A stretch of 46,183 nucleotides of DNA, filler included, from Jimgerdemannia flammicorona (taxonomy: Eukaryota), in assembly GCA_003990765.1 (NCBI GenBank). It is 2 parts of 2 records of this genome, joined end to end, with 100 filler letters (N's around TTAATTAATTAA, not from the genome) between each part and the next. Parts side by side here need not be neighbours in the genome. Positions count along the whole stretch, not along the records: positions 1 to 23,046 come from RBNJ01001166.1; 1 more part is not named here. One strand, written 5' to 3'. Positions 1-27,700 of this stretch are shown in pieces. A model generated the notes under the pieces. That model was not told the DNA's origin. It did not search any database and worked only from the letters and a program-made list of their open reading frames with translations. How positions within the stretch are numbered: the first letter of the stretch is position 1; every line of letters begins with the position of its first letter. The position numbers were made by a program, and so were the translations under genes.

Positions 1-1790
1 TACATTCTCCCCTCTTACTATCCTATCCCCCTAGGGCCCCCCTCCCCCCCTTCCCTATATCTTCATACTTAAATACTATCTTATCATCCACTACTCCAAC
101 TCTTCCCTCACTCTGCTCATAAATCCTCTTTACCAAACAGTGCCACTGATCACTCTGCAGACTCCATTCCAGCCACCAGTCTGTTAAAACATCCTCTATC
201 AACCCTTTCTACCTCAATAGCTGCTCCCCCAAACCCAAATATTTCCTTTCCTCAAAAATAAACAACCAGTAGTCTGCCAGCCCTATCTATATAGTTAATA
301 TCTAACCTAAAGTAAGTTACTTCTTTCCAATCTCCTCCACCAATCTATTCTTAAGATCTTCCCATTGACCCCTCTCAACATCCCCCCTATATATAATACT
401 CAATCAATACTTAACTACTAATCAAAAATCACCAAGTACCTTATACTCTCTCAGCTAATATTCTGACATCTGCATAAACCCCCCTTCCTGCCCTATATTA
501 TAACATTTCTCATAGTCAAAACTCTCCCTCTCCACAAGGTAGTCTGAGCAAAAGTTGAGTATGACATTTCTTTATAGTATATGCCACCAGACTATCCAGT
601 ACATAGGTGATAACTATATATATATCTCCTCACCTTACTCTAGGTTCAGACTTCATTTTAGTTCTACTTCTCTCCAATATCTGCTATCTGCTAACTGCCA
701 GGCCAAGCATCTTGGCCCAACTCCCTCTAGTACTTGACTTCTTCACCAATATCAAAATCTAGAAGAGGGGTACCCCTCAATAATACTTTATCCTATCTCT
801 ACATTACTGGACCCCAAGGTATCTTCCCTTCATCTCTCTATTAGCAAATTTCAATGTAATGAGTCCCATCTGCTACTTTCTATCAGAAGCTCTTATATCA
901 TATATACTTACTATTTTGCAATCTAATAAAGGACAATAGATCTCTAATAGAGCCTCTTAGTAAGCATCTCATCTCTCAGATCTTCTTTATCAGTAGAACC
1001 CAGCTACCACCCCTCAGTTCTACTGCTCTCTTCAGTCACTATACTCTTAAACAATACAGCCTCTTTGGAAAGTCAACCAACCCAAGTCCTCCTCTAGCCA
1101 CTAGTAGTGACAAGATTTCCTAGCTAATATGACTCCTTCTTTCAGCTCAGATCTAATCTCTAGCCAACTTCAAAAGCCTCTTCACTACCCAGGTCAGAAA
1201 GTCCAGATGATATGCCAGATACCATAGCTTCAGCAGTCAGTAGACATTCAAAATTGTAATATATCTCACCAAAGAAATGTGGTGACCTTCTCAACTCTGC
1301 AGAGCCTCCCTCCAGATAGCCACCCTATGTTTCCACCAAGGTCTTGGTAGAACTGATCTATATACTGAAAGATAGACTCCCAAGTATCTTACAATCTCTT
1401 CAGTAGGGACAATTGTTCCAATAATATCTCCTCCCACCAGGCCATTGCCCAATACTATTGTTTCATACTTATATTAGTTAAGTTTCACCTCAGAATATAT
1501 CTCATACTACTCTATTATTTCTCAGAGCTTCTTGATATCTGCAATTAATCTCAGACCAACCACCATATCATCTGCAAAGACTCCAACTTTCCACACCACA
1601 CCAAATACTGAGAGCCCCACTATCTTTCACCAGATCCTATCCATCAATAGCTCTAAGGACAGAGTATACAAAATAGATAACAGTAGATCTCTCAGGAGAA
1701 TATCTCTACCTAGAGATAATGCTATCTCTCTATGCCCATTACATATAAGCACTGCTCTACTCTCTTCCAGCAGGCTGATTATTGTCTAAA
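1..1790 (-). mobile_element. Degenerate non-LTR retrotransposon (L1/Tx1-like LINE), RT domain to 3' end
   Basis: Minus-strand translation with stops gives SRAVLICNG..LGRDILLRDLLLSILYTLSLELLMDRI (decayed G-VRQGDPLSP-L), KVGVFADDMVVGL (FADD at 1567-1578) and RYLGVYL (1368-1388). Bases 1-60 resemble the LINE 3' end at about 22950-23010. Almost no CpG. Confidence 0.85.
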
Positions 1791-2408
1791 AGAAGATAAT
1801 TTTTTATTAAATATAGAAGAAGCAGTAATTTGATATAGATATTTAGTATAATAGGAATTCTGATGAAATTTTCAAAAGATAGTCATACCTCTAAATAACT
1901 CTAATAAAGAGAAGTATAAATATTCTGAAATAATTCTATATAGATAACTATCTCTCCAATATAAGTATCCAGTAATAATACTAAGAATAAACCAAAAACA
2001 AGATTGCTGTTACTGTTTTTAAAGTTATTGAATACTAATAGAATTCTACAAAACTATCTTCTATTAATATATAAATTTCTAGAGACCCAGATCTAAATAA
2101 AGCCCAATATGTAATATCTTAGAAGAATACAATATTTCCAGGCTTTCTGCTATCAATAAGAACTTAAGAAGTACTATAAGATAGGATATCTCATCTATCA
2201 ACAAGCTATCCTCAGTATTACTAAATAATAAGTCTATCTTTTTATTGACAACCATACTTATATAGTTACTAAGAGACTCTATATTCTTTTTTATATCCAA
2301 CCCTAAGTTCTCAACTACCTTTATAGAGTATTCCTTAAGAATATTATCAATTTGAGTAATGAATAATAGAGTGAAATTATTTTTCAAGTAGTTCAGTATA
2401 CTGTCCTT

Positions 2409-3494
2409 CAGTTTGATGAATATCTAAAGTTTAGTACTAAGTCTAATAAGTAGACTTAACCAAAGAAGAGAAGGATGTAATAAATTATTACATATATATA
2501 TCTTCAAGTCTCTGAAAATTCCAACAGAAATTTCTATAGAATTTCTAACTAATAGTTATAATTATCTAAATTAATATAACTATATATAGATATATCAAGT
2601 ATACCATATTTAGTCATAGCCTTTAAATATATATATATAAATACTCTCTATATTGAGTATATTGTAATCTTAGCTCTACTTTCTCTAAATATAAGAATAA
2701 AGTAGTATTCTTATTATCAAAAACTCTCAGATCTAACTTATTAATAATTTTAAGTCTGATTAACTTGAGATATAAGTATGATACTTTTATCAGTATAAGA
2801 ACCTAAAAGCAATACTTAGACTCTGCTATAATAGATATTAGAACTCAGTGCTTTCTTAAGAACTCAGAACTTAGGACCAAAAGTTATCTTTGAATCTCTA
2901 TAATATATTAATTCTATTAGTATATAGTTTTATTACACCACTCTTTAGTTTGATAAGTATCTAGAGTTTAGTACTAAGTTTAATAAATAGACTTAAACAA
3001 AGAAGAAAAGAATATAATAAATTATTATATATATATACCTATAAGCCACTGAAAATTCCAATAAAAATTCTGATAGAAATTTCTATAGAAATTTCTATAA
3101 AATTTCTGACTAGCAGTTATAGTTATCTAAAATAATATAAATATATATAGATATGTATACCTAATATACTATATTTAGTTATAGTCTCAAATATATATAA
3201 ATACTCTCAATATTGAGTATTGTAACCTCAGCTCTACTTTTTCCAAACATAAGAATAAAATAATATTCTTATCACAAAACTCTCAGATCTAACTTATTAA
3301 TGATTCTGAGTCTGATTAGCTTGGGATATAAGCATGATACTTCTATTAGTATAAGAACTTAAAAGTGATATCTGGACTCTATCACAACAGATAACTAGAA
3401 CTCAGTGCTTCTTCAAGAACTCAGAACTTAGGGCTGATAGTCACCATTAACTATCTGCAATATAGTAATTTTATTAGCATATTATTTTATTATA
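2409..3494 (+). repeat. Tandem direct repeat of two LTR-like units (LTR 2476-2937 and 3013-3494), each preceded by a polypurine tract
   Basis: 2409-2937 aligns by eye with about 2946-3494. Copy 1 starts TGTAATAAA and ends TTTATTACA (perfect inverted termini) after AAAGAAGAGAAGGA. Copy 2 has the same termini with transitions (TATAATAAA...TTTATTATA) after AAAGAAGAAAAGAA. Confidence 0.75.
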
Positions 3495-3749
3495 GTTATT
3501 ATGAATTATAACAATTTTATCAGATATATAAATTAAAAAATATAGTTTAATTAATTTGAATTATAATTTAAAAGTTAGATAATATTGTTAAAATAATAAT
3601 CTATTTATGACTAAAACAGTAACTGAGAGTTTATATATAAAGATTGATAGTATTTTTTTTAATAATTTAGATAAGATTGTCAAATTGTTTTATTTAAGAG
3701 TCTCAGTTATAGGATATATTATTATAATTAATACTTTTAAATAAATAAA

Positions 3750-3848
3750 ATCAATTTGAATTAAATTGCATTGAGATTTGATTTGAATATTTCAAATTAA
3801 ATCAAATTGAGGTCAAATTTGATTCAATTTGATTTGTTCTGAGCACTA
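3750..3848. mobile_element. Probable terminus of a DNA transposon (hAT-like subterminal repeat array)
   Basis: Dense array of TCAAAT/ATTTGA/TTGAAT variants in both orientations ending in GAGCACTA. Restoring CpGs gives (TCGAA)n-type repeats next to a TAGTG terminus on the minus strand. The family is an inference; the other end is not seen. Confidence 0.4.
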
Positions 3849-5496
3849 ATGGTAATTTTAATTTATATTATATTAAAATAGTTATCACATCTATCTCTTG
3901 CCAAATTAAAGCTATAATGCACAAGAAATACCGCTTGGAAATGCAATAAGTTTGTTGGTTCCCAAGCTGGATGAAAGAGCAGGTAATTATGTCGCACATG
4001 AAAATTGCGAAAGGTGGAAACATTATCGCGTTTTGTCGACACTTTATATGCCAACGGGAAGGCGCGCCCTTCACGACATACCGAATTGGCGCTCCTGAAC
4101 CTACCACAAAACCTGTGGCTGTTGAGTTTTCGTGACGACAAGTGTTTCACTAAGCCCTGCTCGCTAAAGGGTATCTTCAATTCCCATAAACCAACACGTT
4201 TTGTCATCGAAACGGGAGGTTTGGCATAAATGTATATACACGCGCTTATCTGCATATTATTTGACTTGGCTGCACATGCTGGTTACAACTTTTTTTTTAC
4301 TTGCGTACAAATGGAAAGGACGTCAAGAGTAGGCATCTCAGAGATCCTACAAATCGTTGCCCATCGTCAATTGGTCGACACAACCCATAAACTCCAAGTT
4401 CCGAGTGCACAGAAAGCAAGCGGCTTCCCATAAGCTGCCTCGCAAATGGCCCGTCGTTGCCACTTTGTATTAGCGCACCAAAACACATGCTAAACTCTGG
4501 CTGATCGTTTTTTGGCCTTCGACCACTCCTCGAGAGATGATGCTTTGGAAATGTACAGGAAAACGGACTCGTCGTCGTTCCGTACTTGCCCTTGTGTGGG
4601 AAACATCAACGTCGGTTGGCGAAAAGAAATCGATCAACAAAAAAAGTTTAGAAAAAAAAAAATTATTAGTTGTTGTCGCGTGCTCGATTGTGAATCCTCA
4701 AACCCATCCAATTTTCAGACCCATCAAACGTGCCATACCTTGCACTCTAGGTCATTCAAGCAACCCGATCCCATAACGAAAATCCGACATCCACGACAAT
4801 CGAACTCCTTTGCCTGTTGGCAAAGCGAAACACAACGTCCGTATTGTGGAAGCAAGATCCATGTCACCGGCATTGACAATCCTCCCACAAAAACGTAAAG
4901 CTCCTTGTGACAAAATACTCTGAGGGATCGCAAGGCAGTCAGTTGCAATGATGCGACACGAGGAGAGCCTCCAGACGTCCCCCGCCCGCAATTCCCTGTA
5001 CATGAATCGAGAGAATTCCAGGCACCGGACGGAGCCGGCATAAAAAGTCATAAATGTTTGCGAGCGAGTCCTTGGAGGCGAGCATACAGCTCGGGTTCAA
5101 GTCGGTGCCTTTCTATTCGACATACCTAGTTGGGTTCAAATGCTTGCACTGGCATTTAATACTGTAGGTAGCTCCCATGGGCAATTGTAGTACGCTAGGC
5201 TTTGTGCGCCATAGTTGGTAAAGAATATCGGGATCAGGTGAACGGCCTTGAACCTTCTGTTAAATAGTTTATTCTCCAAATCTCTGCACAGTGTACACTA
5301 TATTAATATTCCGCGGGGGAGAAGGTGGCAGAAAATAAACATTCACAAAGAAAATTGCGTGGTGGGCAATGAAAAGAAAAGAAGGCTAACCCCCCTTGAA
5401 GGATCAGTGTTCGATAAAAATTGTTCAGTCAAGGAAGGGGGGAAGGGGAAAACAAAGTCAATCAAGATCGCCAAGCTCGTATCCCTTGTCCCCCAC

Positions 5497-8400
5497 CTAC
5501 AGGGATTCGACTTTCAAGTCACCGACCATGACCCTAGCGGCCTTCGAAAACGCCTCTTTGATAGCATCGGCGTTAGTTTGGGCCTTAATATGCAAGCCCC
5601 CGTTTCGGCTCGCCTGGCAGGCTTGTATAATTTCTGCCTCGTTCTCTAGATTGCCGACCGTAATGGCCAGCAAGGAGATGTGGCCGCTGCTTCGGAGCTC
5701 TGCCTGAACGTTGTTCCGCGCCGTAGGGTTTGAGGAATTATCGTAGCCATCTGTGAGAGCGACGACCCAAAGCGCGCGAGGTGACCCAAAGGCGGGCTTG
5801 GATGACGACGCGGAGGACGCGGATTTCAGGGTCTGAATGGCGTGTAGAAGGGCGTCCCCTGATGTATAAGAGAGTGCAAGCATTTTAGATTTTCAATGAT
5901 CACAGAGAGGAAGAAAAAAAAAGGGGGGGTAACGTTAAAAGAAATAGACTTACAGAACGCGGTAGCTCCATTAGTTGATGTTTTTGTCTGCACTAAATTG
6001 ACCATCATTGTCTCGTCCCTTGGCTGAAGAGACCATACCACCTGCATTTTATGCTGGAACGTAGTCAAGCTCAACCGGTCACCAGGGAAAGTGTACTTGG
6101 TGATGATATCCGTTAGGCTCTGGCGACACGCCCTAATGTACGCGCCAGTCATGGATCCCGAGCAATCGAGCACGAACGCAACGTCTTTCACCATTGTAGT
6201 CGAGGACGTATCGAAAGCGTGGCCGAAGAGGGGTACACCGACTTCGCGGACCGAGGCGGCAAAGGCAGGGCGGTTTACCGAAGGGGATTCGCAGATGCGA
6301 ATGACTTCTTTGACGCAGAAGAGTTGCACGTAGGCGACAATGGTGTCGTAGCGCTGGAGAACGTCTATGAAGTGGATAAACGATGAAAGACCATTAAAGA
6401 AGATAAAGATTGTTCAAAAGCAGGAACAGACTACTTACAGGTATACCACGACACAGCCTCTTCCGGCTTCCCACTCCGATCGGCTAATATGCCCATATTC
6501 ATCGCCGCATACTGGATGCTAATGTGATTTCCCCTCTCCTTGACTGTCTCGTACGCGTCAGTGATCAAGCCGGCTGCCTCGGCGGACCGCCCAGTATCCA
6601 GGTAAAGCTGACCCAAGTTACCAGACACCTGCGCAATGCCCTCGACGCTATCATTCTTACGGTGCAAGTCGAGGGACCTCTGCAGATGCTGCTCGGCATT
6701 CGCCTGGTTTGCGCCGGATTGTGGCTCAAACTCTTTGTAAAGGACCCCAAGGTTCATGAGGCGGTTTGCGAGTACGATCTCGTAAGCCGCTTTGCGGCTG
6801 GGATCTTTCTCGAGGTTCGCGAGACTTTCGGCTGCGCATGAATATGAATTGCGAGTTAGTCGGGTGTTAATCATAGCGGTGAGAGACATAATGGATGGCA
6901 AACTTACCATTTTGAATCGCAAGGTTGTACATGTTAAGGGCCTCGTCGAGACGGTTGCCCATTTGCTTTAACGCATTGCCTTTGTTGTTGAGGCAAACGC
7001 CGCGGCCTCGCTCGTTACGGAACTGGATCATCATCCTTTCCGCAGCCTCGTACTACATGCAGGAAAGGGATAATTATTAGGCAAATTGGCATCGAAGAAA
7101 TAACGATGACGATTGATTAGCAAGCGGAGACGTACGTTCTCCAACGCTCGGTCGAGGTCTCCAGCGTAGTAGGCCTGGTTGCCGAACCGAACTGAAATAG
7201 TTAGCGGAAACTACACACATTAGCAACCTGAACCATTACATTCATAAACGATAGCAAAGGTCCAGTTTAGCCTTCAAACCTACCAGCAATAAGAAGGTTT
7301 TTAAAATGCTCATGAATGACATTAAGCTCGGCCGACACGGGCACCCTTTCCCCGAGCTCTACCGCCAAATCCACCTGACACATGCGAGTAAGCCAGTCAT
7401 TCAACTCAGCGATAGGAGCCAAGATGCGCTCCGCTGTTTTTCGGCATATTCGGTAAGCAAAGTAAGTGAGGCCTAACAGGAAACCAAAAACAAGGCCGGT
7501 AGAGACGCCACTAAAGATGGTGGTTCGAACGCGCATCTGTGAGCTCAGTGCTTCGATGTCTGACGAGGGTACAGTGAGGCAGGCAATGAAGTCTGTGCCA
7601 TTAATAGGAGCGGCGGCCACACGCCATTCGGTGCCGGATTTTGTGTAGACGTCAGAGAGACCGCTTGCTGCGAGTTGTTTGACGAGGGTGAGGAAGGCCG
7701 CGCCTTGTGTAGCGTTGCCGGCGAATTCGACAGTCGCAAGAGTGGTCGATTTCGTGTAAATATCGATGGTGTGGTTGGCGCTGTCGACTTTCGGACTTTA
7801 GGGATCCATTATAAATTGAGTCGCGGGTTCATAGGCTTGAGATACTGCATAAAAAACAACTACTCACTATACGATAAGGGTTCCGTTCAGATCCACCATA
7901 AACATGTACCCATTCCGCAACACAGACGTCTGGGTCAACGCGCTATTCAAACTGTCCATTTCCAACTCAATAGCAATAACGCCTTTGAGCCCAGCCTGTG
8001 TAAAGAGCGCCTGCGATGTGGTAGTAGCGACGCGTTTCGTGATGGCGCTGATGAACGGCGGCGAGAACTGAGCAGGCCCCAGAACATCGACGACGCCCGC
8101 CGCAGAAGCAGACGTGAGTGCCTTCTGATACCAAGCGCGGCATGCCGGAATGAAGCCCACTTTTTGCTGCAGCTCGGCCGGGGCGAAGGACACATTACAG
8201 AAGGTCCCGGTGCGGCGGCTATCGTCGAAGACGTAGGGATAACGCCGGAAGCCGAAGTCGGTGAAACCCGCGTAGATCGCTTGGATGGAGGGCTGGGGTT
8301 GAAAATGGGCTGGGTTAGGCAATTGGGAAAGTAGGATTTGGTAAAGTCCTAAGAAGATGGTGTTCAAATACCTTTCCAATGGCCAGGGCTCGCATCACAT

Positions 8401-9045
8401 TGTCCAAGATGGTGGAACGGGACATATTTTCCGTAGAAGCATTGAGCTGGGCGATGGTGGTGATGTTAACACTGAAGTACCCCGAATACAGTTTTTCCTG
8501 ATTTCCTGGCGGTCGCGGGGGGTCAACGAGCGGGGTGTCTATCTCGGTGGTAAAGTAGGATTCATACGGCCTTATGGGCGAGGATGAACATAAATATCCT
8601 TTACAGTTGCAATTTCTGACGATGTGCTGATTATGGCAAACCCGCATTCGAATACACTTACTTGGTATAATTAAGCGGTAGCTCTGATGGCAAGTCCGAC
8701 CGAAACAGCTCGAGGGCGTACGTGGAGGCCACGACGTTGTCGGCAAGGAACCCGTTAGTGATAGCTTGGGCGATCGCTGCGCGACCGAGGGAGATACTCT
8801 TGAATGCGTTTATCTCGGTATTCTCGATGATGTCCTGGATAGTCGACGCCCAATTGTTGGACCGTTTATAGATGACGACGGTCATGCCGAGCCCGAGGAT
8901 TAGCATGCCGAGAGTGAGTGGCACCACCAGGCTGGAGTGTCGAGGAGTGGATGATAAGTTGACTCGATGAGTTATTTTCACATGATACAGGACAGGCATT
9001 CAGTGCATTTATGTACCGAAGGATAATGTGGTTCGTCAGTTTCAT
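5497..9045 (-). CDS. Putative two-TM membrane receptor: dCache-like extracellular domain, HAMP, TPR repeats, C-terminal vWA domain (10 exons, 933 aa)
   Basis: Hand-spliced exons: 9045-9017, 8931-8662, 8570-8372, 8292-7868, 7795-7284, 7191-7136, 7052-6908, 6831-6439, 6364-5954, 5858-5497, total 2802 nt. All introns are GT-AG and phase-consistent, with no internal stop. TM1 LVVPLTLGMLILGLGMTVVIY. Cache-like motifs IYAGF..GFRRYP, FIPACRAWY, GVIAIEL, GYMFMVDLNGTLIVYP. TM2 IFSGVSTGLVFGFLLGLTYFAY. HAMP-like ILAPIAELNDWLTRMCQVDL..AELNVIHEHFKNL. TPR-like GNQAYYAGDLDRALENY, LNNKGNALKQMG, LMNLGVLY, SGNLGQLYLDTG, AMNMGIL. vWA VAFVLDCSGSM, GATAFWDAL, VVALTDG. Confidence 0.9.
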
Positions 9046-9058
9046 GGTTGCGATGTGG

Positions 9059-9123
9059 TGTTTTGACGGAAAGGCTTCGATGAAGAGAACTGTTTTGACG
9101 GAGAGGCTTCGATGAAGAAAACT
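9059..9123. repeat. 32-bp tandem duplication just upstream of the receptor ATG (likely 5' UTR)
   Basis: TGTTTTGACGGA(A/G)AGGCTTCGATGAAGA(G/A)AAC occurs twice in tandem. Confidence 0.85.
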
Positions 9124-12100
9124 TTAGGTCATTTATGAAGCTCGAGTGTAGACACCACCAAGAATTTATTGAGGCAAAGTCGATAACTCCAAGTCGACCT
9201 TCTGACTATATATATACATATTTGGGGTCAGGTGTGGTGCCCGACATCTGTCTTTCCCCTTGATCCGGAGCCTTTATCCAAAAATAATTGACCTTGATTT
9301 CGTAATGACCACGTGCGGACTATTCAGGGCTCACTTGGTGCCAACCCCTTCCTGAAGCGACGGAATCCAAGTCCTTCATCGAAAAATATTTGGACAATTT
9401 CAAGGCTACCCTTCAGGGGTCCAAAAATAGACTGTTTGTGGATAGAAACACATAAGCACGTTCCCCGTTCGGGGTTACCGCGCCACCTGTAATACTCTCG
9501 TGTTCTTGTTCTTCCTTCCTTATTAACAGTCCAATGGGTAAGCCTCTTTTCTTCCCACTGTATTTATTTCCCCTCTCCGATCCTCCATCCAATTCGCCAC
9601 ATTCAACCAGACTGCCTCAACAAAATCGATGAAACCAACGAACTCCACACTAAGTTCTACAACATGGTCAAGACAATCCGGGATAACATACAGTCTCCGG
9701 AAGTGACTACGCATACCACAACGTGCAGTTGCCGGCGTGGGATCCGGTAAATAACCCGTGCTCCGTTGTCGAACAACTACCCGATCTACCGCCAACGTAT
9801 GAGATGCATGCCTCTGAAAATCGGCATTCACCTGTCACGGAGACGTCCAACCTCCAGGGCCAATTAAGGGCGTCGCTAAGCTGTTCGACGTGCCGAAGCG
9901 GAAGTGAAGGGAATGCAGTGTGTAAATAATGGGCCTGCGAAGGAGGAGCGAAGGAGGAGCGTAGGCGGTTTGGGTAGGACAAGTTGACTCTTCACGTATT
10001 TATATTTCTCTGAATAAACCAATGTTTAATAGCCACATCTTGGCCAACAGTTTCAAAAACGGCCCGTCGTCGACATCTGTGCAACGTCAAAGAACTCGTC
10101 CAGTCGTAATCCACATTAAGCAATCGGTATCAATGCACGTGAACGGGAAACAAACGATGCAAGCAATGACGACAAGCGAAATTTTCTGGACCAAGATCTG
10201 CCGTCAATAATAATGTACTTCCTCGTATGGTTTTTACGCGCCTTTATTTTATATTCATTTTTTGGGGAATTGTGATTGATATTTTGTAAGGACGGACGGA
10301 TGCTTCAATCCTCAACGGACAGGTTACTGAAGATTATTTGGTCGACGTGCGCCCCGTATCTATTTGGATTTTACGTATGCTTTTAATCATGTTGGGATGT
10401 GGGTTTCGGCGTCACGTGCAGGGCGGCGCGGAATCCTTAAGTCTATATTGGGATCATGCGGAACAGATTGTGCGGTTGGCTACAGCGTCAATAGTGTCTT
10501 GAGTCCCTCGGTCAATATAACACCCTGGCCCAACGGCCTGCCTTAAACAGTGAAACAGTGGCCTGTGCATAAATCAAGCCACCCGTCGATATTTAGTATA
10601 CGAGAGGTGGCTCTGACGAGCAGCTACTAAAATTATCTCAAACGTGGGCAACAGGCGCGTGGCTTGCCATGCCCAAGTGACGATTACCGATTTGTGTCGA
10701 GGTATATACACGCTTCGTAGATGGTATCAACTCGATTGACTGAAATAATTTTTTTTATGGTCTAATATCGACTTTTACAAAATTTTAATCGCCTAAATCC
10801 GTTATACCTTCCATTTATCCTTCCATCCTCTTCGTTAGTAAATATGTCAATATCGGTATTGTTCGCGTCTTCTAAAAGGGCCAATTCACTACTTGGGAGT
10901 TGTTCCGTTTATTTTTGTATTTTATTCCATTTCCGTAATCGCAGAGGTCGTATTTTTAAATTCTAAGGGGACCTAATTATATAGATGTGGCGCATTATCC
11001 CCAAGTCAGGAAATCGGTACTTTTTTTTTTTGGCACTGACGGTACGCCATGCGTAACTCCGCCTCTCGCCTAACCTTCAAACGCAACCCCGCCGGCCTCC
11101 TTAAGCTTATCCGGCTGGTAATCCTCTTTGCCGGCGAGGTGCTAGTCTTCCATACTGCGACCTGGTCAATGTCACTGGCCCGAGCACCAATCATGGCGCG
11201 CGAAGGCCCCCCTAAGCCACCCTTTCATATTGCCATGGGACCCACAGATCACAGACGCGCAATCGTATAGCCGCACAGGTATTGTTTATTGGCTGATCGA
11301 GTTCTGTACATGCACAAGATCTGGCGAGTACTCCACACCGCACTCCGTCCTCAAGTGGACTTCTTTTTGGCGACTCATGGATGAGTGGTCCGACGATGAT
11401 GCCACGCTGGGTGGCTGCGTCGTATATACACTACCCCACAGGAAGCCACGACATCGGGTTTGGCGACGGCGTGCGAGTGTTTGATGTGAAATCGATACTA
11501 CATAGTAACACATTGGTGAAACGTCGTACGAGGTTGAGTTTGGGAACTACTCCTCCGTAGCCGTTTACTCTGCTTCCCTCCGCTCGTCCTACCCAGATGT
11601 CATAACGCCGCCCAGCGAACTTCCTCAACGCCGTCTCCACCCTGACCCTCCCATGTGTCCTTCTTACCCACGTTCCGCGCTACCGCCCGGACTGAACGTC
11701 GTGCGGTCTGCTCTGTCGTGTGCCGAAGTCCATCAACCAGGGCGCTGGGACCAGTACCATAATCTCATGACGCCCGAGCTGACGACCCGGATCTTGTATA
11801 AGACAATTCTAGCGATTCTGGGTGCGATCTCCAGCTGGGTGGATGCGCGTGATGAGAAATCGGAGGAGTTAGAGATACTGTTTTACGGGAGGCACAGGGA
11901 GAGCGGGCGCGAGAGCGACGAGGAGAAGGAGAAAGTTTTGGAGGACGGTCAGGGGAGTTCGCGGAGGTGGCGGGGTTTGTGGTCGTGGTGTATGTAGTAT
12001 TTGTGGCGTGGTCGGTGGTTTGGTGATTTTTTACTTTATGCAGAGAAGGAAGGGGTCATTATATTCAAATGGCAGTGCGGTAAAATGGTATATTATTACA

Positions 12101-13253: not shown

Positions 13254-16200
13254 GTTACAGTATTAGCGACACGCTTGAAACAAGGTATATACCGATTTCG
13301 TGCCTGATTGCCTGATCACAAGCCGGGTTCGACTCGAAAAGGACGGACCTGGTGGCTACGGCGAGGGGTCGTCAAACTGGGAACACATCTACACCCACAC
13401 CCACTCTCACACACACACAAACATGCTAATATACTTGTCAAGGGATAACAACGGTGATCACCCCAAAGAAATCAGAGTCCGCGTCAAGGTTTCCGCGGCC
13501 GATGATGACCCGGCTGAGCTCGTTGAAAGCCATTCCTTCAACTTTCAAGAAATCCACGAGGGTCGATCTATCGCCGTCGATGTCTTCAAGTCAAAAACCA
13601 ACTCGCGGGATCTCAGAAAATACGGCAAAAAATTGTTCTGGGCCCTCTTTTCGAAAAACGAGTTCAGTTCCGCCGGCGCCTGCTGCAGGATATATTATCA
13701 CTTCGCTCAAAGGGTCGGATCCGGCTCGAACTCAACAGCGGCCACGACCTCGACGTCATCCCCTGGGAGTATGCGTGTGGAAACAATGCATATCTGACCA
13801 GTCAATGTATGTTCGTACGCCAAAGGTTCCAGCGCGGCGGGGAAGAGAGAGACGCGAAAAGGTTAGATAAACCGAAGGGGCCTCAGCCATCAAAACTTCC
13901 GCCACTTCCGTCACTTCCGCTACGCATTGTCACCGTCATACCAGACCCAATTGTCCTGCCGAACGATCCCAACGCAAGGCAATTTCCGGATCTGCATCTG
14001 AGCGATCAGTTTCAGACATTATGTGATGCATATGAGAAAACAATCGAACGGTATTACTGCAGCGTGTGTTCCCGCCGACCGTCGATCAAATGTACGAGTT
14101 GCTTAGGGACATGCCTGAGACGGGCACCGTGCTTCATTTTATGGGGCACTGCGGCTCGCAGAACAATGGTGCGAGGGCACTCATCTTTGAAGATAAAGAC
14201 ACAGGAAGTCTCGACTTCGCTGACGCGTTGCGCCTTGAAATGACCATGAATCTGCGGCTGGCCTTCTTGTCAGCCTGTGTTACTCGCCATGTCGCCCGAG
14301 ACTTGGCCGATAACGGCATCCCATACACCATTGGTTCACACTGTCCCCTGCCGGACGACCTCGCCCGCAAGTTCGAGTCCAAATTCTACATGTGCCTTGC
14401 AGGCGGCGGCACCGTCGAAAAGGCGATGTTGGAGGCGCGCGCCTCCATGAAAGAACCAAAAGATACCCGTCAATGCTACTACTTCCCTGGTGCCATGGTG
14501 CTCTACTCGTCCACGTTTCGGGAAGAGGATGGCGCATTCAAGTGCGGAGAGGAAAACCCACGATAGAAGTTGATATGCCCCCTCACGACCTCGAAGAGAT
14601 CTCCTTCACACGGTTTTTTTTGCGGACGCAAGGAGGAGCTTATCGAGACAACCCGCGTTTTGAGACGTATGGCGGAGAGAGGGACACAGACCTATCCCAT
14701 GTATACCATTGAAGGTATTGCCGGTCAGGGCAAGACGGCGTTGGCTGAGAAGGACGTCAGGCGGATAGCGCATCTCTTCCCCAGTGGGATCTTTGCTTGG
14801 CGATTCGATCATTCGCACGAGATATCGGTCATCAAATATCTCCAGGGACCATGTTCCAGGAAAATGTCGGCAATGACTTTCACACGTTGGAGCAGACCAT
14901 CATCATGAAATTCCGAGCCCATTCGACGAGGTTGTTGATCCGATATCTTGAAGTGCGCGCAAGTCAGAGACGATGAAGACGCTGTGATATTGGTAAATTG
15001 GCTTCGGAAGGTTATGTTGATACCGGGGATTCCAGTAAGAATTCATGCGACATCGCACCAGCGGCTAATGTGGACAGCAGAGGAAGACGTGATGACTCTC
15101 GACGGTTTTACTGGCTTGGACTTTGACAGTGGTGTTGAATTGTTCATTCGAAATCTTGACGCTCAAGTGAGGCAGAGGATGGCGAAGGAGGCAAATTCCA
15201 CGCAGTTGCTGCACGATCTCGTCAGGCTTGTAGACGGGCATCCATTGTGTTTGGAATTCCTTGGCCATGCCACCAGAAAACCACAACATCAGAGTGCGTC
15301 ACTTAAGGAACTCGTTCGTGAAAACTTCAGCACAATGCTCGCGGAAGGCTCGTTTGGTAGTAGAAACCTCGAATCCCGTTTCCGACCGACGATCGACGAG
15401 CTTCGAACTCAACACCGCCTGCTACTTTGTATGTGTTCTCTCTTCACCGGACCGGTCACAGAAAGGATGCTAGCGTTCATACATCATTTTGTCGAATTCA
15501 ATTGTTCCCCGGAAGAAAAGGTCGATTGTAGTATTGAGAACCTGCAGAAACTATGCGATATTAAGTTATTGACGAAAAGAGATGATGAATACAAGATCCA
15601 CGGCGCTCTTAGGGAAGGTATGAGACAGTATAATTCTGTGATGAAACTACAACTTTGTTTCCCGATAGTTGGCGTAAGTACAAGGAATGTCGACAATGTC
15701 ATAATATTGTACACCATAAGCCCCGTTCTTCACTTCACTACGGATGCTTCGCAGTTGCCACTCGAACACCATGGAAAAATTGTAGAGCAGGACCAAATGA
15801 CAGCATTTCAGCTGTATTACTCACCATGTGGATATGCCTTGGCAACACCGATTATAAACGTGTCATCATAAGCGGCCACAAACTCGAAAGGGACGGTGTG
15901 CAGCAGCAAATGTTATTTGGTGGATTGATTGTGTTCAGACGTAATACGTCCAAAATTCTCCATACCAGCTTTCCTGAGTTCTGCAGGTAACACATCATAC
16001 CGATTGTGACAGAAATGAAATCGCCGTTCATTCTGTGTTTGCATCGTGACGATGCCCATCTCGTCAAACGGTCTACTACAAATGCTGAACAGAATATAGG
16101 CCTGATGAAGAAAGCCATGGAAACTTTACAATCTGGTTTGGGGAAGACGCACGTTATAAATAGGACAGAACCTCCCCCAAGTGAGTTTTTAGTTTCTTCA

Positions 16201-16966
16201 ACTCCCCGAGCAACGATTGCTGGAAACAATGCAAACTCACAATACCATAATCGATCTGTTTATTTGAATACACAAACTGATGGACATTATCTGTGGAGAA
16301 GGGCGGCCCTCAAATACTTTGTTAGGTAAGCAAAAATTTGGTATAATAATGTGGACAGGAGGAACTAATAGGAATCGTTCATTGACAAAAATGCTTTCCA
16401 TTCACCAAACCAAAGTCGGCGATGAGAACCAACCGGCAATGGAAGTAGATTTTGGCAATGTCAGCACATTTGGAGAATTTGTTGGGCATCAGCAAGAGCT
16501 CCAAAAATTGAGAGAACTACTGATTGACGAAAGAATTCGCTATATAACCATTCGCGGTTTCGGCGGGATGGGAAAAACGGCATTGGCAATCCAAGCAGTC
16601 AAGAACTTCAACTCTGGCGGAGTGCTGGTAATATCTCTGGTTGGAAACCCGAGTTCGGATTCAGTAATCTCGACGATTGCTGGATTTCTCAACATCAACA
16701 TCGAAATGTCTCGAGATCCTAAGATTCGACAAAATGTTGTGAAGACCAAGTTATCAATTGGAGGGCCGATGTTGTTTTTATCTCGACAATATGGAGGATT
16801 TCAAACATGCAACCGAAAAGGAAGACTCAGCGACAAAAAAGGATGCAATGTCTTTGATGAGATTTTTCCACCTAATACCCAAAAACCTCAAAATTCTTGC
16901 AACACCACGAATCGCGCTCAATTGGCCTAATGAACAATTTGTCAAGTTGAATGGCTTAGCACCACA
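13254..16966 (+). pseudogene. NLR-like pseudogene: CHAT (caspase-like C14 clan) protease plus two tandem STAND (NB-ARC-like) NTPase modules; frameshifted and 3'-truncated
   Basis: Stitching frames gives YGKKLFWALF..RIRLEL..LDVIPWEY, VLHFMGHC (14132-14149) and LAFLSAC (14261-14278), the CHAT His/Cys dyad. NTPase 1: FCGRKEEL, GIAGQGKT (14714-14737), ATSH, GHPL, KIHGALR. NTPase 2: FVGHQQEL, GFGGMGKT (16556-16579), LFYLDNMED, ILATPR, VKLNGL. Frame changes near 13673, 14050, 14555, 14615, 14850, 14945 and 16780. The 5' end is uncertain (possible exon 13254-13284, possibly from 12890). Confidence 0.85.
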
Positions 16967-17134: not shown

Positions 17135-20120
17135 AAGTAAAAAGGATGGGGCTAGCCCATGGGCTGGTAGAGGGTCAGATGACTCTAATGTCCAAGAGTT
17201 TCTGAATGTGTTCTTTCTCAAATATCTTTAGGTGATAGAGTATTCTATAGGGTTTCTGCCAGATGGATGTTGTATTTTCTGTATTTATACTGTAGTGGTA
17301 TGATGGATTATATGGCAGATTATCATAATCTATAGTAAAGTATCTCAAAATTTATAAAGAAGTTCTACTAGTTACTACTACTGCTAAGATATCAGTTCTT
17401 CTTTAATATTGATAGAAGGTTTTATTTTCTCCTAAGTCACAGAGACCTTTCCTTTCCTGAGACCTTTTGACATTTTCTGATAGATTTAGTTTATAGACTT
17501 CTCTGTATATCTAATTGAGATAGGATACTAAATGGCCTATGATAGTTCCTTTTGGCAAGATGAGGCTGTCTCAGCTTTGGTTAGTTGCTTGAGAATATAT
17601 CTGGTTCATTTTGTCAAGAAATATATATCCTTCTATATCAAGGTTCTTGAGGTCTTTATTTGGTTCAAAGAAAAAGTTTCTGAGATCTGATAGTGTAAAG
17701 ATTTTGAAGATAGTCTGCTCTTCTGATTCCAGGATGAGGTTCTTGAGAAGTTTGACTGATTGGTAGTATACTTATTAGAGTATATTCTTTTTAAAGTAAT
17801 TGACTTAAAGGAGAGATATCTTCTTTATATCTGAACTTCTAAATCTTCTAGTCTGTCTTATATCTTGGATCAGTTCCAAGACCTTCTATAGTTAGAGAGT
17901 CTCAACTTTTATAAAAAATACTTGAGAGACTTTTTCTTCTCTATAGATTTAGATCTATTCAGTACTGTTATTTCTTAAGATAATCTTAATTTTACCTATA
18001 TATCCAGGATCTATAGTTTCTTCTTCTATAGTAATATCTTATTTTATAAGTCCAGATCTTGAGGTTAGTTGAGGTGACTGCATAGTAAGTCTTATACTAA
18101 GAAGTACAGTATTTTCAGTATTGATAGTTTTATCTCAGAGATTATAAAGATTATTATCTATATCTTTCTTATAGACTTTTGTTAGAGATCTGGCTTCAGA
18201 GTATAGTAAGATATACTATATAATATATTTGCTAGGTGTAGGTTGTTCTTGAGCTGATGTTTTTATAGTTATGAGTCTTTAAGCTCTAATATTAAGATAT
18301 AACACTCTGGCTCTAGTAGAGAAATCTTGGAGATAGTTGATTCCTCTCTTTCCAGTAGAGTTTAGGGCTTCCATAAAATTGATAACATCTTTTATCTATC
18401 TTTGGTAAGTTGTATATCTAGTGAGAGCTAGAATATTATCTTCTAGATTATAGATCTTAAGAGTTTTTTTATAGGTCTCTTGACTCAGTCTTTTCAAATT
18501 CTGGCTCTATTATCTTCTCTCTTGAGTATATATATTAGAATATCTTAACTAAGATATATTTTCTCATATTGGTAGATTTGACAACTTGGGTATTTTCTAT
18601 AGTAATAGTGTCTAATTACTTAAAAATACTATTTTTAGTTATCAACTTCTCACTGTTCTGAGAATTAGTAGCCATCTGTATTATAGATAAAAGAAGAGTA
18701 ATTAAGGACTATACTTCTGTGCAGATGAAGTATCTTCTTTTATAAGATCATTTTATCAGTATTGTAGTTATTTTCTGAAATATAATTATCTATATAGTAA
18801 TTATTGAAGATACTGATTAAGAGTGTCTTTGTCTTTCTTATTGATCTAATAGATAGCACTAATATCAGTAATCTCAGAGAGAGTGAAAGATCATTTGATA
18901 CTGATATCTTTCTATTCAAAAGACTCTTTTTTAGTTTCTTATCTTGAAATAATAGTAACTATACTTGATCCTTTTTCAGTATTCAGAAATTATCATCTTC
19001 TGATAGTATTTAGTATAAGTCATCTTAAGAGATCTGCTCAGAGAGTTCTTCTAGTTCAGAAATATCTTTATCTACTTTTCTTATTCTCAGATTACTTATA
19101 CTTTTATAGTCTCGACTATAGAGTCTAATATCTTCTATAAGTGGTTATATTTCTTCTTTCTCTTTCTATATTTAGAGTATACTATACTAGGGAAGTTTCT
19201 GGTCTGATAATCTTGGAGAAATATCTAGGATACTTATATCTTTTAAGATAAGTAGTTTATTCTTTAATTTATTCTGCAATAATACTAATTATAATAGAGA
19301 TAGTATTTTGAGCTTATATATTATCTTCTGGTCTATCATCTACTAGATTGATTTGTAGATAAAGCCTGGAGTCATTTGTATCTTCAGATTTCTTCTCTTT
19401 CTCTATAGTAGATTCTTTACTATTAGCTTACTCTTCCTAGATAATAACATTCTTCTTCTTCTTAGATTACTTATAACTGATAATCTTAATTTGATACTTC
19501 TTTTCTCTATAGTCAAATTTGAGTACTTATTGTCTAATATTAATAACTATATTTATTTTATTCATCTAATTAATATCAAGAATTATGTATATTATAATTG
19601 ACAGCCTTAGTAATAATAGTCTTTGAGATAAAGAACTAGATATATCTAAAAATAATAGTAATATTTTATACTTCTCCTAAGAGTTGAGTTCAGACTCTAT
19701 CTGCTATTATAATGCTAAGAATGAACAGTCTATCAATGAGTCACTAAAGTGTATTTAGAAATCTTTTAGTAATAATATAGATATATATACTAATGAGGGT
19801 TTTTGTCTTCTGTTCTCCAATATCTTTATATAAATATATACTAATATATCTTTCTATAGCCTAGATAGTAGATAGTACTAGTTCTTATTGTGAGATTAGA
19901 ACTCAGTCAGTGTTGGATCTAGTAGTTCTCAGTAATTTATTTCAAACTTTAGTAGATATTAACTGTAAGAATTATAAGAGAAGAACTTCTATATTAATGT
20001 TTTAGATCTTCTTTCAGGCTTTATTATAAATATCATAGAGTATGATCTTTGAAATATACTTCTTTCTAAGTTTTGAGATTGTAAACTCTTATTCTTTCTG
20101 CTCTATTTCTTTATCTTTAG
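17135..20120 (-). mobile_element. Truncated, heavily mutated Ty3/Gypsy fragment (protease, dUTPase, start of RT)
   Basis: Minus strand: protease C-terminal remnant TQLLGEV..near 19500-19750; dUTPase remnant TSRSGL..EETIDPGYIGKIKIILRN..EKVSQ..RQTRRFRSSD (about 17830-18200); RT N-terminus EHIQKLLDIRVI*PSTSPWASPILF ending about 17137. Confidence 0.8.
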
Positions 20121-24708: not shown

Positions 24709-27700
24709 ATGAATCCCTCACTTTCAAGCTGAAAAATGAACAACCCCCACAATAACTACCCTGACTACAAGAGTCACTCCTGCAAGAATTCAAGACAAGA
24801 TGGAAATGTGCCCCCCTACATTCTATGGATATATGTACTACTGAAGAGTCAATCCTGACCTTCATTGAAGACTTTGAACAATTCACTACTATATAAGCCC
24901 TTGGTGTGGATGCACAATTGGCCCTTCTATCAGTCAGCCTCAGAGGACCTGCCAGAGACAAGTTCAATGCAGCCACTATTGCTGATAATAGTGCAGCCAA
25001 ACTTGTCAACATAAAGGCCTTCCTCAGAACAACATACTATACTAAAGAAATCAAGCAAGCTCTCAAGGATCAACTCAATACTATCTGTCAGGGACTTAGT
25101 GAAGATCCCAACTCATTCTATACCCAAATCTGCTACTAGATTGTCCTGGCTGACTATAATGATACCCTTAAGGAACAAATAGCAGATTCAACCTTTCTCA
25201 AAGGAGTTTACCCTGAAATTGCCCTAGCAATCTGGTCTACCCCAGCTGTACTGACCCTTGATCAGAAAGTGGTCTTTGCACAGAGATATTGGACTGCTAG
25301 ACACTCTGCTGAACACTCAATGGAGAAAATAACTGGCATCAAGATAGAGCCATCAAAGCCAACTAATATCATACCTGCTATAGTTATAAACAGACAACCA
25401 ACCCCACCTATCCCCAAAGCAGCCAAAGCTGACCCAGTGGAGGAACTTGCCAAGCAGTTCGCCAAGATGACTATACACTTTGGTAATGTTGTTAGAGAAG
25501 TCTAAAGTGCCAACAGGAGACCAGTGCAGATATTTGCAGCTACTACAGAAGAATGCAATATTATATACTTCAGATATAGAGAAGAAGGCCACTATGCAAA
25601 GAATTGCATAACTGAAACAAGATGCAAAGCCCAACCAAGCAATGCTAGCAGAACCAGAGAACAAACCAATACAGTAGTCATTGAGGAGATTGATGATACT
25701 GATGATGAAGAATACTATGAAGAGCTTGAATTCTACCCTGCTACTGAAGGTACCAGAACCTGGTCCAAGCTCTATGACAAGAAGAGCAACAACAAGCCAG
25801 TTGGAAGACCAAAGTAGATCCCAGCTGTCACTATTCAAAGCAAGACTCAACCTGAAGAGATTGATCAAGACATGGAGTTAGATGAAGCTGCCTGCCAAAT
25901 CATTGAAGGCACTACTCCAGTCTCAGGAGAAAGTGAAAGCAAGAAGGAACAGAAGCTGCACAAGACCAAGATCCATTAGTATGATATGTATCTACAAAGA
26001 TCTCAAGGAACAGAAGGTCAATACTACTTTTGGACAGCTAGCCAAAGTTCCTGCCTTCAGACAGCAGTTGAGAGTAGGACTTGCAACTACTACCAAGAAT
26101 CAAGAGTATAAGATTGTAGAAGCTCACAATGCACAAGAAGAATCTGAAAACTCAGGTAAAGAATCTGAAGACCAATACAAGATATCAGCCTATACCCCAT
26201 GTCAGATCGAAGATTGTATCTTTGATGCTATTATTGATACCGGTGTGGGAGGATGCCTCATGAACAAGAAGGCAATTGACTACTTAGGTTGGGACATTGA
26301 AGAGTCTACCAAGATGGTCTATGTTATAGTAGATAGTATACAAGCTACCCCCCTTAGCTAAATCTGAGAAGTCTCTATCAAGATAGGAGGAGCTACTATC
26401 CTAGTAGATGTAATTGTTACAAGTGCCACCAACTATGATATCTTCATTGGCAACCAATGGCTTCACAAGGCCAAGGCCATCATTGATCTCAATGTCCAGA
26501 AGATGCAGATCAACTATAGAGGAAGAAAGGTACAAGTCTCTATCAATGTCCACAAAGGAGTCCTACCTGACATGGAGGAAGGAGATGAAGAGGACACAGA
26601 GGTCTTCATGTACTCAGTAAACAAGAACAAGAACAAGAACAAGACACCCAAGCTCACAGATTAGCAGTGGTATAACAAGATTATCAATGGCTATGCCTCT
26701 CAAGGAAGATACCCCCATGGTACTAGGATGTACTGCTCTGAACACCTGAATGACTGCTGGTTCTGTATTAGTGAAGTCAGGAAAATCCACCAACAGAAAC
26801 ATGAGCAAGAAGCTGCTGAAGTAAAAAGAAAAGCTGAAGAAGATGACCAGCCCTCAGAGCTTCAAGCTAACAGTGATGATGAGGAAGAACAAGAACCAGA
26901 TATCATCCTTAAGGTCAAGAAGTTCCACCCCAAAGCTAAGACCCCAGAATACAAGACTGAAGGAGCCATAGGAATAGATCTTGCCAGCATTCAAGATACT
27001 ACCCTTGAACCACAGACCACCACCCTACTTGGCACTGGAATTGGAGTCAAGCTGCCAGAGAACCATGCCAGAATTATCAAGACCAGGAGCAGTCTAGCCA
27101 AAAGTAAAATCTCAGTTGAAGGAGGAGTAATTGACCCTAATTATACTGGTGAGATCTTCCTATAGTCAGGAATCACAACCCCACTACCCCATTCGAAGTC
27201 AAGAAGCATAATAGGATTGGCCAGATGCTGATCCACGAAATCAAGAAACCCAAGATCACTGAAGCCATTGAACTCATCAAGACTAAGAGAGGAGAACAAG
27301 GCTTTGAATCTACTGGAAGAGGAGCCTATGCTGCTATCAAGATTACTGAACTTGAACACAAGAAAGACAAGGACCAGAACAAGCACACATATACTATTGG
27401 AGAAAACTTTCTCCTAGAAGAACAACTTCTCAAGATCCTGCACCAGAATGAAGGAGTACTTGCTATAGACTTTAGAGATATCTACAATCAAGAACCCAAG
27501 TACTACTATGAAGTTGACACTGGTGATATCAAGCCCATCTACCAGAAAGCCAGACTCATACCACCTGCTTACAGAGAATGGCTGTGAGCAGAACTCAAGG
27601 AAATGGAAGAAGTCAGAATCAACAACCAAGCTATCAGTCCCTGGGCTTCACCCATTATCCTCACTCCAAAGAAAGGAAGCAAGCCTGGAGAGTTTGCACC

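Follow-up and report, generated by a model that had tools for sequence, protein, structure and literature searches.

The window analysed in this study is a stretch of 46,183 nucleotides from Jimgerdemannia flammicorona (assembly GCA_003990765.1), and the locus at positions 5497 to 9045 on its minus strand is one intact, spliced and transcribed gene. The gene is best described as encoding a eukaryotic form of the Cache-HAMP transmembrane receptor whose TPR-vWA output is non-enzymatic. Its product is probably a two-pass Cache/HAMP-like receptor with an amino-acid-like ligand and a TPR-vWA output that would work by docking, and we favour this reading with some reserve. The predicted protein starts with a short N-terminus and a first transmembrane segment (TM1), which lead to an outer dCache_1 region of 366 aa and a second transmembrane segment (TM2); beyond TM2 come a pair of HAMP-like helices, TPR repeats in about six pairs and, last, a vWA domain that has a complete metal ion-dependent adhesion site (MIDAS). 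The locus had been singled out in an earlier note, made from the sequence alone, as a candidate undescribed fungal signalling receptor.

The gene model was built on the minus strand from the ATG at position 9045, and its introns were placed by donor, acceptor and frame. All nine introns had GT..AG borders and lengths of 72–95 nt. The ten joined exons gave a spliced frame of 2802 nt and 933 codons with a single terminal stop, which reproduced exactly the ten phase-consistent exons and the 933-aa open reading frame of the earlier note. Furthermore, the model was collinear with P0006, a 929-aa protein of the chytrid Polyrhizophydium stewartii, from the first residue to the last five, and the alignment was ungapped at all nine junctions, with 458 of the 918 aligned positions identical (50%). 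Paths with 7 introns, obtained in a search for the fewest introns, skip coding sequence; they were rejected because they deleted residues conserved in P0006 and because the RNA joints fitted the 9-intron model.

The splicing was examined in contigs of four RNA or RNA-like runs mapped to positions 5400–9150. Two of the runs, X1 and X2, share one organism as their source and are only presumed to be RNA; the other two are metatranscriptomes, X3 of roots and X4 of soil. Joints for seven of the nine introns (2, 4, 5, 6, 7, 8 and 9) were present in the contigs, all of them CT..AC on the plus strand, and the proposed splicing was to this extent seen in RNA. Introns 4 and 5 were observed in the metatranscriptome X3, and introns 2, 6, 7, 8 and 9 only in X1 or X2. 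No joint for introns 1 and 3 was found in the contigs of X1–X4. An X1 contig covered positions 9017–9150 and ended at the end of exon 1, and X4 covered only 7953–8226 in exon 4, with no joint.

The contigs differed from the window at 18 letters, of which 12 were at the third codon position, three at the first and three at the second. These differences touched 17 codons, and 11 of the 17 codons remained synonymous. It follows that diverged copies are transcribed, and the predominance of third-position and synonymous changes gives them the look of constrained sequence. The J. flammicorona assembly holds at least three to four diverged paralogs. In addition, a spliced X2 contig at 6715–7015 carried 21 letter differences, used the same intron 7 and matched the residue changes of the paralog models P0005 and P0008. 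This contig is probably the transcript of a paralog, and thus at least one paralog seems to be transcribed and spliced alike.

In the deposited annotation of J. flammicorona, the locus is represented by two models. The query with exon 4 matched P0001 (BC938DRAFT_471467, 282 aa) with 100% identity, besides two paralogs at 75% and 64%, and the query with exon 9 matched P0004 (BC938DRAFT_471466, 430 aa) with 100% identity, besides the paralogs P0005 (84%) and P0008. P0001 corresponds to model residues 26–307 and ends at a stop just inside intron 4, and P0004 corresponds to residues 504–933. The annotation lacks exons 1, 5 and 6 entirely, as well as the first part of exon 2 and of exon 7. Accordingly, the deposited models do not show TM2 and the HAMP-like region, the membrane-proximal Cache module and some of TM1. 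Because spliced contigs bridged introns 4, 5 and 6 in frame, the two deposited models belong to one gene, and the split into two transcripts that the earlier note had considered did not hold. The architecture has been invisible in databases for J. flammicorona because the deposited annotation splits the gene and omits both membrane-spanning parts. The paralog models P0002, P0003, P0005 and P0008 look likewise cut, and the end residue of P0003 is that of P0001.

The tests of the Cache fold were made with the chytrid ortholog P0006 and the family profile in place of the joined window protein, and they bore it out. The profile A1, made from 36 full-length members, matched solved amino-acid sensor domains in the PDB with E values of 1e-26 to 3e-25 (Mlp37, 6iop, 1.3e-26; PctA, 5ltx, 3e-25), and the sensor domains of CtaA, Mlp24 and PctC were also matched. 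Moreover, alpha2delta-1 was matched at 2e-30, with its Cache and vWA covered by separate stretches. The AlphaFold2 (AF2) model of P0006, built with A1, had a predicted local distance difference test (pLDDT) value of 84.1. It consisted of a helix at residues 3–86, a beta-rich region at 125–384 and one long helix at 385–447, and, after residue 487, of eleven more helices to 723 and an alpha/beta domain at 735–918. Foldseek on this model gave full-length Bacillus subtilis chemoreceptor models first (E 1.5e-11), followed by the tandem-Cache structures of PscC, Mlp37, CtaA and PctA with template-modelling (TM) scores of 0.59–0.79 by target, those of PscC, CtaA and PctA being 0.74–0.79. These fold matches were in agreement with the Cache-like region that had been proposed. 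In Pfam, dCache_1 was matched at E ≤ 5 by 35 of the 36 members; P0006 scored 35.4 bits, and many relatives scored above the cut-off of 45, such as P0039 (66.4 bits) and P0034 (64.7 bits). The frame of exon 4 matched dCache_1 at E 7.7e-5 and MCP-like_PDC_1 at E 5.2e-5. In addition, two cysteines of the Cache region were nearly invariant in the family.

The amino-acid-binding motif dCache_1AA is given, in the passages of PMC8915833 consulted, as Y, R, W, Y, then Y, then D. The pocket of the window protein reads F R W Y F E, which departs from the six-residue motif. The paralog P0003 had the same F R W Y F E, and the paralog P0002 had F C W Y F E. The complete Y R W Y Y D was found in P0006, at each of the three giant-virus loci and in 23 of the 27 metagenomic relatives, and the last motif position in nine chytrid sequences was D in four, Q in four and A in one. 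F at the first motif position is a listed variant in the part of the PMC8915833 dataset covered here, and the later changes from Y to F and from D to E were not among the variants in the passages of that paper. The F/F/E pocket may therefore take another ligand or have lost binding. The Arg, the aromatic cage and an acidic residue are kept in the window protein, and the best guess for this copy, judged from its residues, therefore remains an amino-acid-like ligand that carries a carboxylate.

The hydropathy profile (Kyte-Doolittle, 19-residue window, >1.6) showed two hydrophobic segments only, at residues ~6–31 and 399–421 with 366 aa between them, in agreement with the two membrane helices expected. 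The 366-aa middle region contained nine N-x-S/T sequons versus two in the 512-aa tail, and four K/R residues were found after TM2 versus two before it. From the two segments, the sequon counts, the charge bias and analogy, the Cache region would lie outside the cell and the TPR-vWA tail in the cytosol.

The region following TM2 is HAMP-like, that is, homologous to HAMP by profile and modelled fold, and is not a Pfam member. At a Heimdallarchaeota locus, the gene directly after the family member encodes a 495-aa dCache_1 protein with a Pfam HAMP at 416–478 (27.6 bits). The alignment of A1 with this short paralog (L017:6763-8247) by hhalign had a probability of 99.8 and an E value of 8.5e-29 and ran through the whole HAMP at 416–478. 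In the column alignment, the window protein had the same spacing as HAMP and shared a Pro in helix 1 and a Glu at the start of helix 2, which we take to be HAMP hallmarks. The hhalign comparison with a Psychromonas chemoreceptor reached HAMP helix 1 only. In the P0006 model, the region was formed by the helix to 447, a low-confidence loop at 448–462 and a helix at 463–487. Furthermore, the Gonapodya fragment P0038 is named 'HAMP domain-containing protein' in UniRef. The earlier claim of a HAMP-like helix pair was thus retained as regards the profile-profile alignment and the helix-loop-helix of the model, and found no Pfam HAMP match.

When two copies of residues 1–495 of P0006 were co-folded, the score was 0.42, and the best of three controls gave 0.00. 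The runs agreed in at least 78% of the contacts, and the pLDDT of the partner was at least 69. The mark for a dimer was reached by 21 of 30 proteins solved as one-chain pairs and by 0 of 23 solved single chains; for eukaryotes, the counts were 17 of 29 pairs, 1 of 7 without an older solved relative and 0 of 30 single chains. The contacts in the model involved TM1 with the N-terminal helix, TM2 and both HAMP-like helices, and residues 424–443 and 464–479 of both copies touched. The two-copy model supports binding but does not show binding. Dimers of Cache receptors have been solved, and because of this the pass may come from likeness to them.

The tail was examined on P0004, which scored 47.4 bits for Pfam TPR_12 (cut-off 30.1) and 64.6 bits for VWA (cut-off 23.8). 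The AF2 model of this tail, the window's own, built with alignment A3, had a pLDDT of 91.2 and contained ten helices at 8–220 of P0004. The repeats were present as proposed, and their number came to about six pairs instead of the about five of the earlier note. The vWA domain of the tail matched the vWA of ITIH4 (9c4f_I) in Foldseek with a TM score of 0.82 by target and a root-mean-square deviation of 3.0, and Foldseek on the P0006 model also listed vWA domains and the TPRs of LGN/Pins. The MIDAS, which had been described as full, was complete in the window and in 35 of 36 aligned relatives, P0022 being the one that departs. Pfam found no enzyme or MCP domain in the window frames, P0001, P0004, P0006 and 40 relatives, and the stated lack of a kinase, cyclase or MCP domain was therefore upheld in these scans.

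A possible mode of action follows from this order of parts. The protein would act as a dimer, and a small carboxylate- or amine-bearing, amino-acid-like ligand would bind in the membrane-distal Cache pocket. The signal would travel via TM2 and the HAMP-like bundle. The output would be a changed binding by the cytoplasmic TPR groove and the vWA metal site, with no catalysis, by which the receptor may recruit or release a cytosolic partner. The coordinates of the gene and of its predicted parts are collected in Table 1.

Table 1. Coordinates of the gene, its exons, the intron joints observed in RNA contigs and the predicted protein regions; positions count along the window.
Feature	Position	Strand	Remarks
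Whole gene	5497..9045	(-)	ATG 9045, stop TAG 5497-5499; 10 exons, 933 aa
Exon 1	9017..9045	(-)	residues 1-10, start of TM1 region; N-terminus agrees with P0006
Exon 2	8662..8931	(-)	TM1 and long N-terminal Cache helix; intron 2 joint 8569>8661 in X1, X2
Exon 3	8372..8570	(-)	start of membrane-distal Cache module; junction to exon 4 as in deposited P0001
Exon 4	7868..8292	(-)	distal Cache module; pocket F213, R218, W220, Y221, F246, E275
Intron 4 joint	7795>7868	CT..AC on +	X3
Exon 5	7284..7795	(-)	proximal Cache module, TM2, most of HAMP-like region; not in deposited annotation
Intron 5 joint	7191>7284	CT..AC on +	X1, X3
Exon 6	7136..7191	(-)	end of HAMP-like helix 2, first TPR-type helix; not in deposited annotation
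Intron 6 joint	7052>7136	CT..AC on +	X2
Exon 7	6908..7052	(-)	TPR; Pfam TPR_1 E 0.005 on frame
Intron 7 joint	6831>6908	CT..AC on +	X2, contig with 21 other letters
Exon 8	6439..6831	(-)	TPR; Pfam TPR_12 38.6 bits on frame, cut-off 30.1
Intron 8 joint	6364>6439	CT..AC on +	X2
Exon 9	5954..6364	(-)	linker helices and first vWA half; MIDAS DxSxS at 6153-6167; Pfam VWA 34.3 bits on frame, cut-off 23.8
Intron 9 joint	5857>5953	CT..AC on +	X1
Exon 10	5497..5858	(-)	second vWA half, MIDAS D850 at 5749-5751, stop; Pfam VWA E 1.7e-4
TM1	8868..8930	(-)	residues 11-31; hydropathy; helix 3-86 in P0006 model
dCache_1 sensor region	7525..8867	(-)	residues 32-398, includes introns 2-4; Pfam, profile, model, Foldseek
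TM2	7456..7524	(-)	residues 399-421; hydropathy; helix 385-447 in P0006 model
HAMP-like helix-loop-helix	7184..7449	(-)	residues 424-481, includes intron 5; hhalign, alignment, P0006 model
TPR-type helical repeats	6279..7183	(-)	residues 482-705, includes introns 6-8; Pfam, AF2, LGN/Pins matches
vWA domain	5524..6191	(-)	residues 735-925, includes intron 9; MIDAS D743, S745, S747, T811, D850

Several observations weigh against a receptor of this kind. Pieces of the window scored 22.7–22.8 bits for Pfam dCache_1 (E 7.7e-5 to 8.1e-5), with a cut-off of 45, the pieces being scanned as fragments; P0001 alone gave one weak match in the PDB, 7w0w at E 0.0033. Pfam HAMP was not matched at E ≤ 0.1 in window exon 5 or in P0006, and HAMP was outside the 25 most-matched Pfam families in the 36 relatives (E ≤ 5; the rarest of the 25 was matched by six members). 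The cytoplasmic position of the vWA domain is drawn from analogy, sequon counts and a weak charge bias, and the dimer score was given by a model that may draw on solved Cache dimers. No single contig of X1–X4 spans the whole transcript. A tblastn search with 12 short paralogs, four decarboxylases and four propeller proteins, which accompany the family in archaea as described below, gave nothing outside the gene in the 46-kb window. Finally, the F, F and E of the pocket are common to all three J. flammicorona copies, and one copy is also without the R.

With three of the six pocket residues changed in every J. flammicorona copy, the gene might encode a single protein that is no longer ligand-gated, namely a TPR-vWA membrane scaffold or an alpha2delta-like auxiliary subunit, in which the Cache region is structural or protein-binding. 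The variable last motif position of the nine chytrid sequences, the match of the family profile to alpha2delta-1 over both Cache and vWA and the lack of an enzyme output domain are consistent with such a protein. However, R, W and Y are kept, the positions changed from Y to F still hold aromatic residues, the position changed from D to E still holds an acid, and F at the first position belongs to the variants listed in the part of the PMC8915833 dataset covered. Moreover, the vWA domain comes after TM2 and is not inserted in the Cache region. The HAMP-like transmitter is conserved along its length, and a passive anchor is hard to reconcile with this conservation. Therefore, the scaffold or subunit is considered unlikely, and a ligand-gated receptor with a docking output is preferred.

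The spread of the family was studied using HMMER with P0001 against 1.84 billion representatives, which gave 114 proteins at E ≤ 1e-3, mostly of 850–1040 aa. Forty of the 114 were scanned, and among the 35 with at least 859 aa, 30 carried dCache_1, TPR and VWA at E ≤ 1e-5; P0050, P0052, P0056, P0060 and P0062 each missed one of the three at this threshold. No relative emerged from 3185 candidates when exon 5 was queried by word index, which reflects a limit of that search, as HMMER and profile methods found many. Among 30 proteins looked up, the named matches were all fungal, and full-length relatives were present in at least nine chytrid genera. The named matches belonged to Nowakowskiella (three proteins), Rhizophlyctis, Cladochytrium (two), Chytriomyces, Zopfochytrium, Irineochytrium and Blyttiomyces, and further to Borealophlyctis, Chytridium, Physocladia, Rhizoclosmatium and Gonapodya. 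The exon 9 query also found Polyrhizophydium and a Borealophlyctis fragment. The short fungal matches with the conserved stretch past the HAMP-like region were cut-off long forms and not a second gene type.

For prokaryotes, a 13-sequence alignment was searched against one genome per species. Among the 80 loci listed, 19 matched over more than 600 residues, and all of them were in archaeal metagenome-assembled genomes: five of Heimdallarchaeota, two of Hodarchaeota, two of Thorarchaeota, one labelled Methanobacteriota and nine of other archaea. One Thorarchaeota locus was on a 3.16-Mb chromosome. The remaining 61 of the 80 loci matched by vWA only or by a Cache stretch only. In addition, the nearest ESM Atlas cluster was archaeal, with Thorarchaeota as the commonest phylum (score 0.99). 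The earlier description of a fungal receptor was thus correct in that the gene is intact in a fungus, and too narrow in that the family is not fungus-specific, as it also occurs in Asgard archaea and giant-virus bins.

The archaeal genes were found in a recurrent cluster (L007, L008, L011, L014, L015, L017, L019, L020, L022 and L024). Of 11 loci, 10 had a short dCache gene directly downstream of the long receptor, and the contig of the remaining locus ends too early to show one. Pfam on nine of these short genes gave dCache_1 in all nine, HAMP at E ≤ 1e-4 in seven and HAMP above its cut-off in five. A pyridoxal phosphate (PLP) decarboxylase (Orn_Arg_deC_N) was nearby in 6 of 6 loci tested, and a beta-propeller protein in 4 of 4 tested. 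At the position of the carboxyl-binding Arg of the fungal and viral sensors, the archaeal long and short sensors mostly had Glu or Asp; YEWYYD was found in five and YRWYYD in one of ten archaeal long receptors.

Three giant-virus bin contigs from IMG/VR encode full-length relatives. Capsid genes of nucleocytoplasmic large DNA viruses (NCLDV) were present, at the level of the bin, in both of the two searchable giant-virus bins (contig entries C4, C28 and C44). Like the archaeal loci, the giant-virus loci had a short Cache gene of ~500–570 aa beside the long receptor (L001 4258-5766, L002 949-2448 and L003 3810-5510). The short genes of L001 and L002 grouped with the archaeal short paralogs (support 100), and therefore the pair seems to have moved together.

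The full-length tree (IQ-TREE quick, LG+G4, unrooted) contained 50 rows: the window, nine chytrid, ten archaeal, three giant-virus and 27 metagenomic sequences. Nine of the 19 long archaeal loci, which were mostly partial, short proteins and fragment proteins were left out. The fungi (10 rows) formed one clade with a support of 100, and so did the archaea (100), and the three virus rows were scattered within a 26-row metagenomic clade. The split between fungi plus virus/metagenome and Asgard had a support of 99.4, and the order of fungi, virus/metagenome and Asgard had a support of 32 in this unrooted tree. The sensor-plus-HAMP tree of 58 rows was rooted on the short paralogs, and the L003 short gene and three long-branch rows were left out. 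In this tree, the archaeal long receptors were a basal grade, and fungi and virus/metagenome formed one clade with a support of 99. At L015, the long gene (2966-6064) and the short gene (6070-7857) clustered together in the sensor-region tree with a support of 100 and not with their own kinds, which suggests gene conversion or a recent duplication.

Among the fungi, the window protein was placed beside Polyrhizophydium and Cladochytrium with a support of 89–98. In the approximately unbiased (AU) test, a tree with the nine chytrids as one clade excluding the window was not rejected (p-AU 0.104). The receipt of the J. flammicorona copy from a chytrid is thus unsupported, and for this reason no transfer between fungi is claimed.

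Among named eukaryotes the family has a patchy distribution (J. flammicorona, Gonapodya and chytrids), giant-virus bins belong to its sister group, and the window protein is among chytrid sequences with the support given above. These features would also fit a foreign or newly acquired gene that serves no function in its host, such as a decaying giant-virus insertion or the contig of another organism in the field-collected material. Such an origin is very unlikely. The gene is expressed, its frame is intact and nine spliceosomal introns interrupt it, at least three to four diverged paralogs are in the same assembly, most of the differences in the transcribed copies are synonymous, the genes nearby (CHAT, NB-ARC-like and dUTPase) are of ordinary eukaryotic kinds, and the AU test does not reject the nine-chytrid clade excluding the window. 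Two separate genes as deposited, namely a Cache fragment of 282 aa, secreted or in the membrane, and a soluble TPR-vWA protein of 430 aa, are extremely improbable: although BC938DRAFT_471467 and BC938DRAFT_471466 were deposited separately, a stop codon is directly past the exon 4 donor when intron 4 is retained and the whole locus is covered by no single RNA contig, removal of introns 4 (X3), 5 (X1 and X3) and 6 (X2) links both models in frame, the content of exons 5-6 (proximal Cache, TM2 and HAMP-like region) is conserved throughout the full-length relatives, including the single-chain P0006, and the Cache fold would be cut in half without exons 5 and 6.

If the gene encodes a docking receptor of the Cache/HAMP-like kind, fungi would possess a class of prokaryote-style chemosensor that has gone unreported in published surveys of eukaryotic Cache proteins. 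The family links Asgard archaea, giant viruses and early-diverging fungi, which matters for early eukaryote evolution, and it is a testable case of transmembrane signalling with a pure protein-docking output. Zoospores are associated with the sensing of amino acids. It is a tentative idea, and a rather doubtful one, that the gene is the eukaryotic branch of an Asgard-born receptor family that was passed to fungi and giant viruses, signals without an enzyme and could underlie, in zoosporic fungi with the complete motif, amino-acid sensing by zoospores.

Elsewhere in the 46-kb window, the open frames at 13279-16930 on the plus strand included a caspase-like CHAT domain (14036-14566, E 8.4e-15) and matched NB-ARC weakly (16268-16930, E 8.6e-4), and these frames may be one spliced NLR-like gene. 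A dUTPase at 26665-27587 on the plus strand occupied two neighbouring frames (26665-27165 and 27153-27587), a sign of either an intron or a frameshift. AT-rich blocks with a GC content of 0.24–0.29 were observed at 1-4000, 18001-20000, 32001-34000 and 44001-46000, lying between gene-bearing stretches with a GC content of 0.45–0.51. The GC skew was strong at 1-2000 (-0.45) and 36001-40000 (+0.31 to +0.37). The AT-rich and the skewed stretches are probably repeats or degraded elements.

Compared with published accounts, the architecture appears to be undescribed, as had been supposed. No characterised family with it was found in the PDB, in NCBIfam, where no model was near its cut-off for the family, or in the literature searched, which was thin on subscription journals and held no description of the architecture. 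Cache domains in fungi have been described as limited to histidine kinases (PMC4822843). According to the passages of PMC8915833 consulted, dCache_1 amino-acid sensors were not detected in fungi, and all eukaryotic dCache_1 proteins have a vWA domain inserted in the Cache region; the sole fungal row in the part of its Dataset S3 covered was Aspergillus niger. These two generalisations, as worded in those passages, do not cover the present family, which has an uninterrupted Cache region, a HAMP-like region and a TPR-vWA tail in an intron-bearing, transcribed fungal gene, with the complete motif in several chytrids.

The bacterial dCache_1 amino-acid receptors (PctA, PctB and PctC of Pseudomonas, Mlp24 and Mlp37 of Vibrio, McpB and McpC of Bacillus subtilis) share with the family the order of a transmembrane segment, a double Cache, a second transmembrane segment and a HAMP-type helix pair. 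Their solved sensor domains were matched by the family profile at E values of 1e-26 to 1e-18, and the family consensus carries their amino-acid motif, as this motif is given in the passages of PMC8915833. Unlike these receptors, the family has no MCP signalling, kinase, cyclase or phosphatase domain, and its predicted output is TPR plus vWA. Furthermore, the window gene is eukaryotic and has nine introns, a HAMP-like region unrecognised by Pfam and the pocket F R W Y F E.

To our knowledge, alpha2delta and CACHD1 are the only described eukaryotic proteins that join an amino-acid-type dCache_1 with a MIDAS vWA. The best whole-chain PDB match of the family profile was alpha2delta (E 2e-30). In alpha2delta, according to a passage of PMC8915833, the vWA domain is inserted inside the Cache region and is outside the cell. 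In contrast, the Cache region of the window protein (32-398) is uninterrupted, and its vWA domain (735-925) comes after TM2, the HAMP-like region and the TPRs. The vWA stretch of alpha2delta scored 46 bits, compared with whole-chain matches of 67.7 bits for 8s05 and 62.9 bits for ITIH4, so the vWA of the family is not specially close to it. The family vWA as a direct source of the alpha2delta insert was therefore unsupported, because other vWA structures scored above the alpha2delta stretch.

The third system is the Asgard cluster of a propeller protein, the long dCache-HAMP-TPR-vWA receptor, a short dCache-HAMP protein and a PLP decarboxylase. A description of its long receptor was likewise not found in the literature searched. 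This long receptor has the same Pfam set as the family and is collinear with it, query residues 1-884 being matched in L014 and L017. Compared with this cluster, the 46-kb window is without a short paralog, a decarboxylase and a propeller gene. Moreover, the position of the carboxyl-binding Arg in the fungal and viral members is mostly occupied by Glu in the Asgard long receptors.

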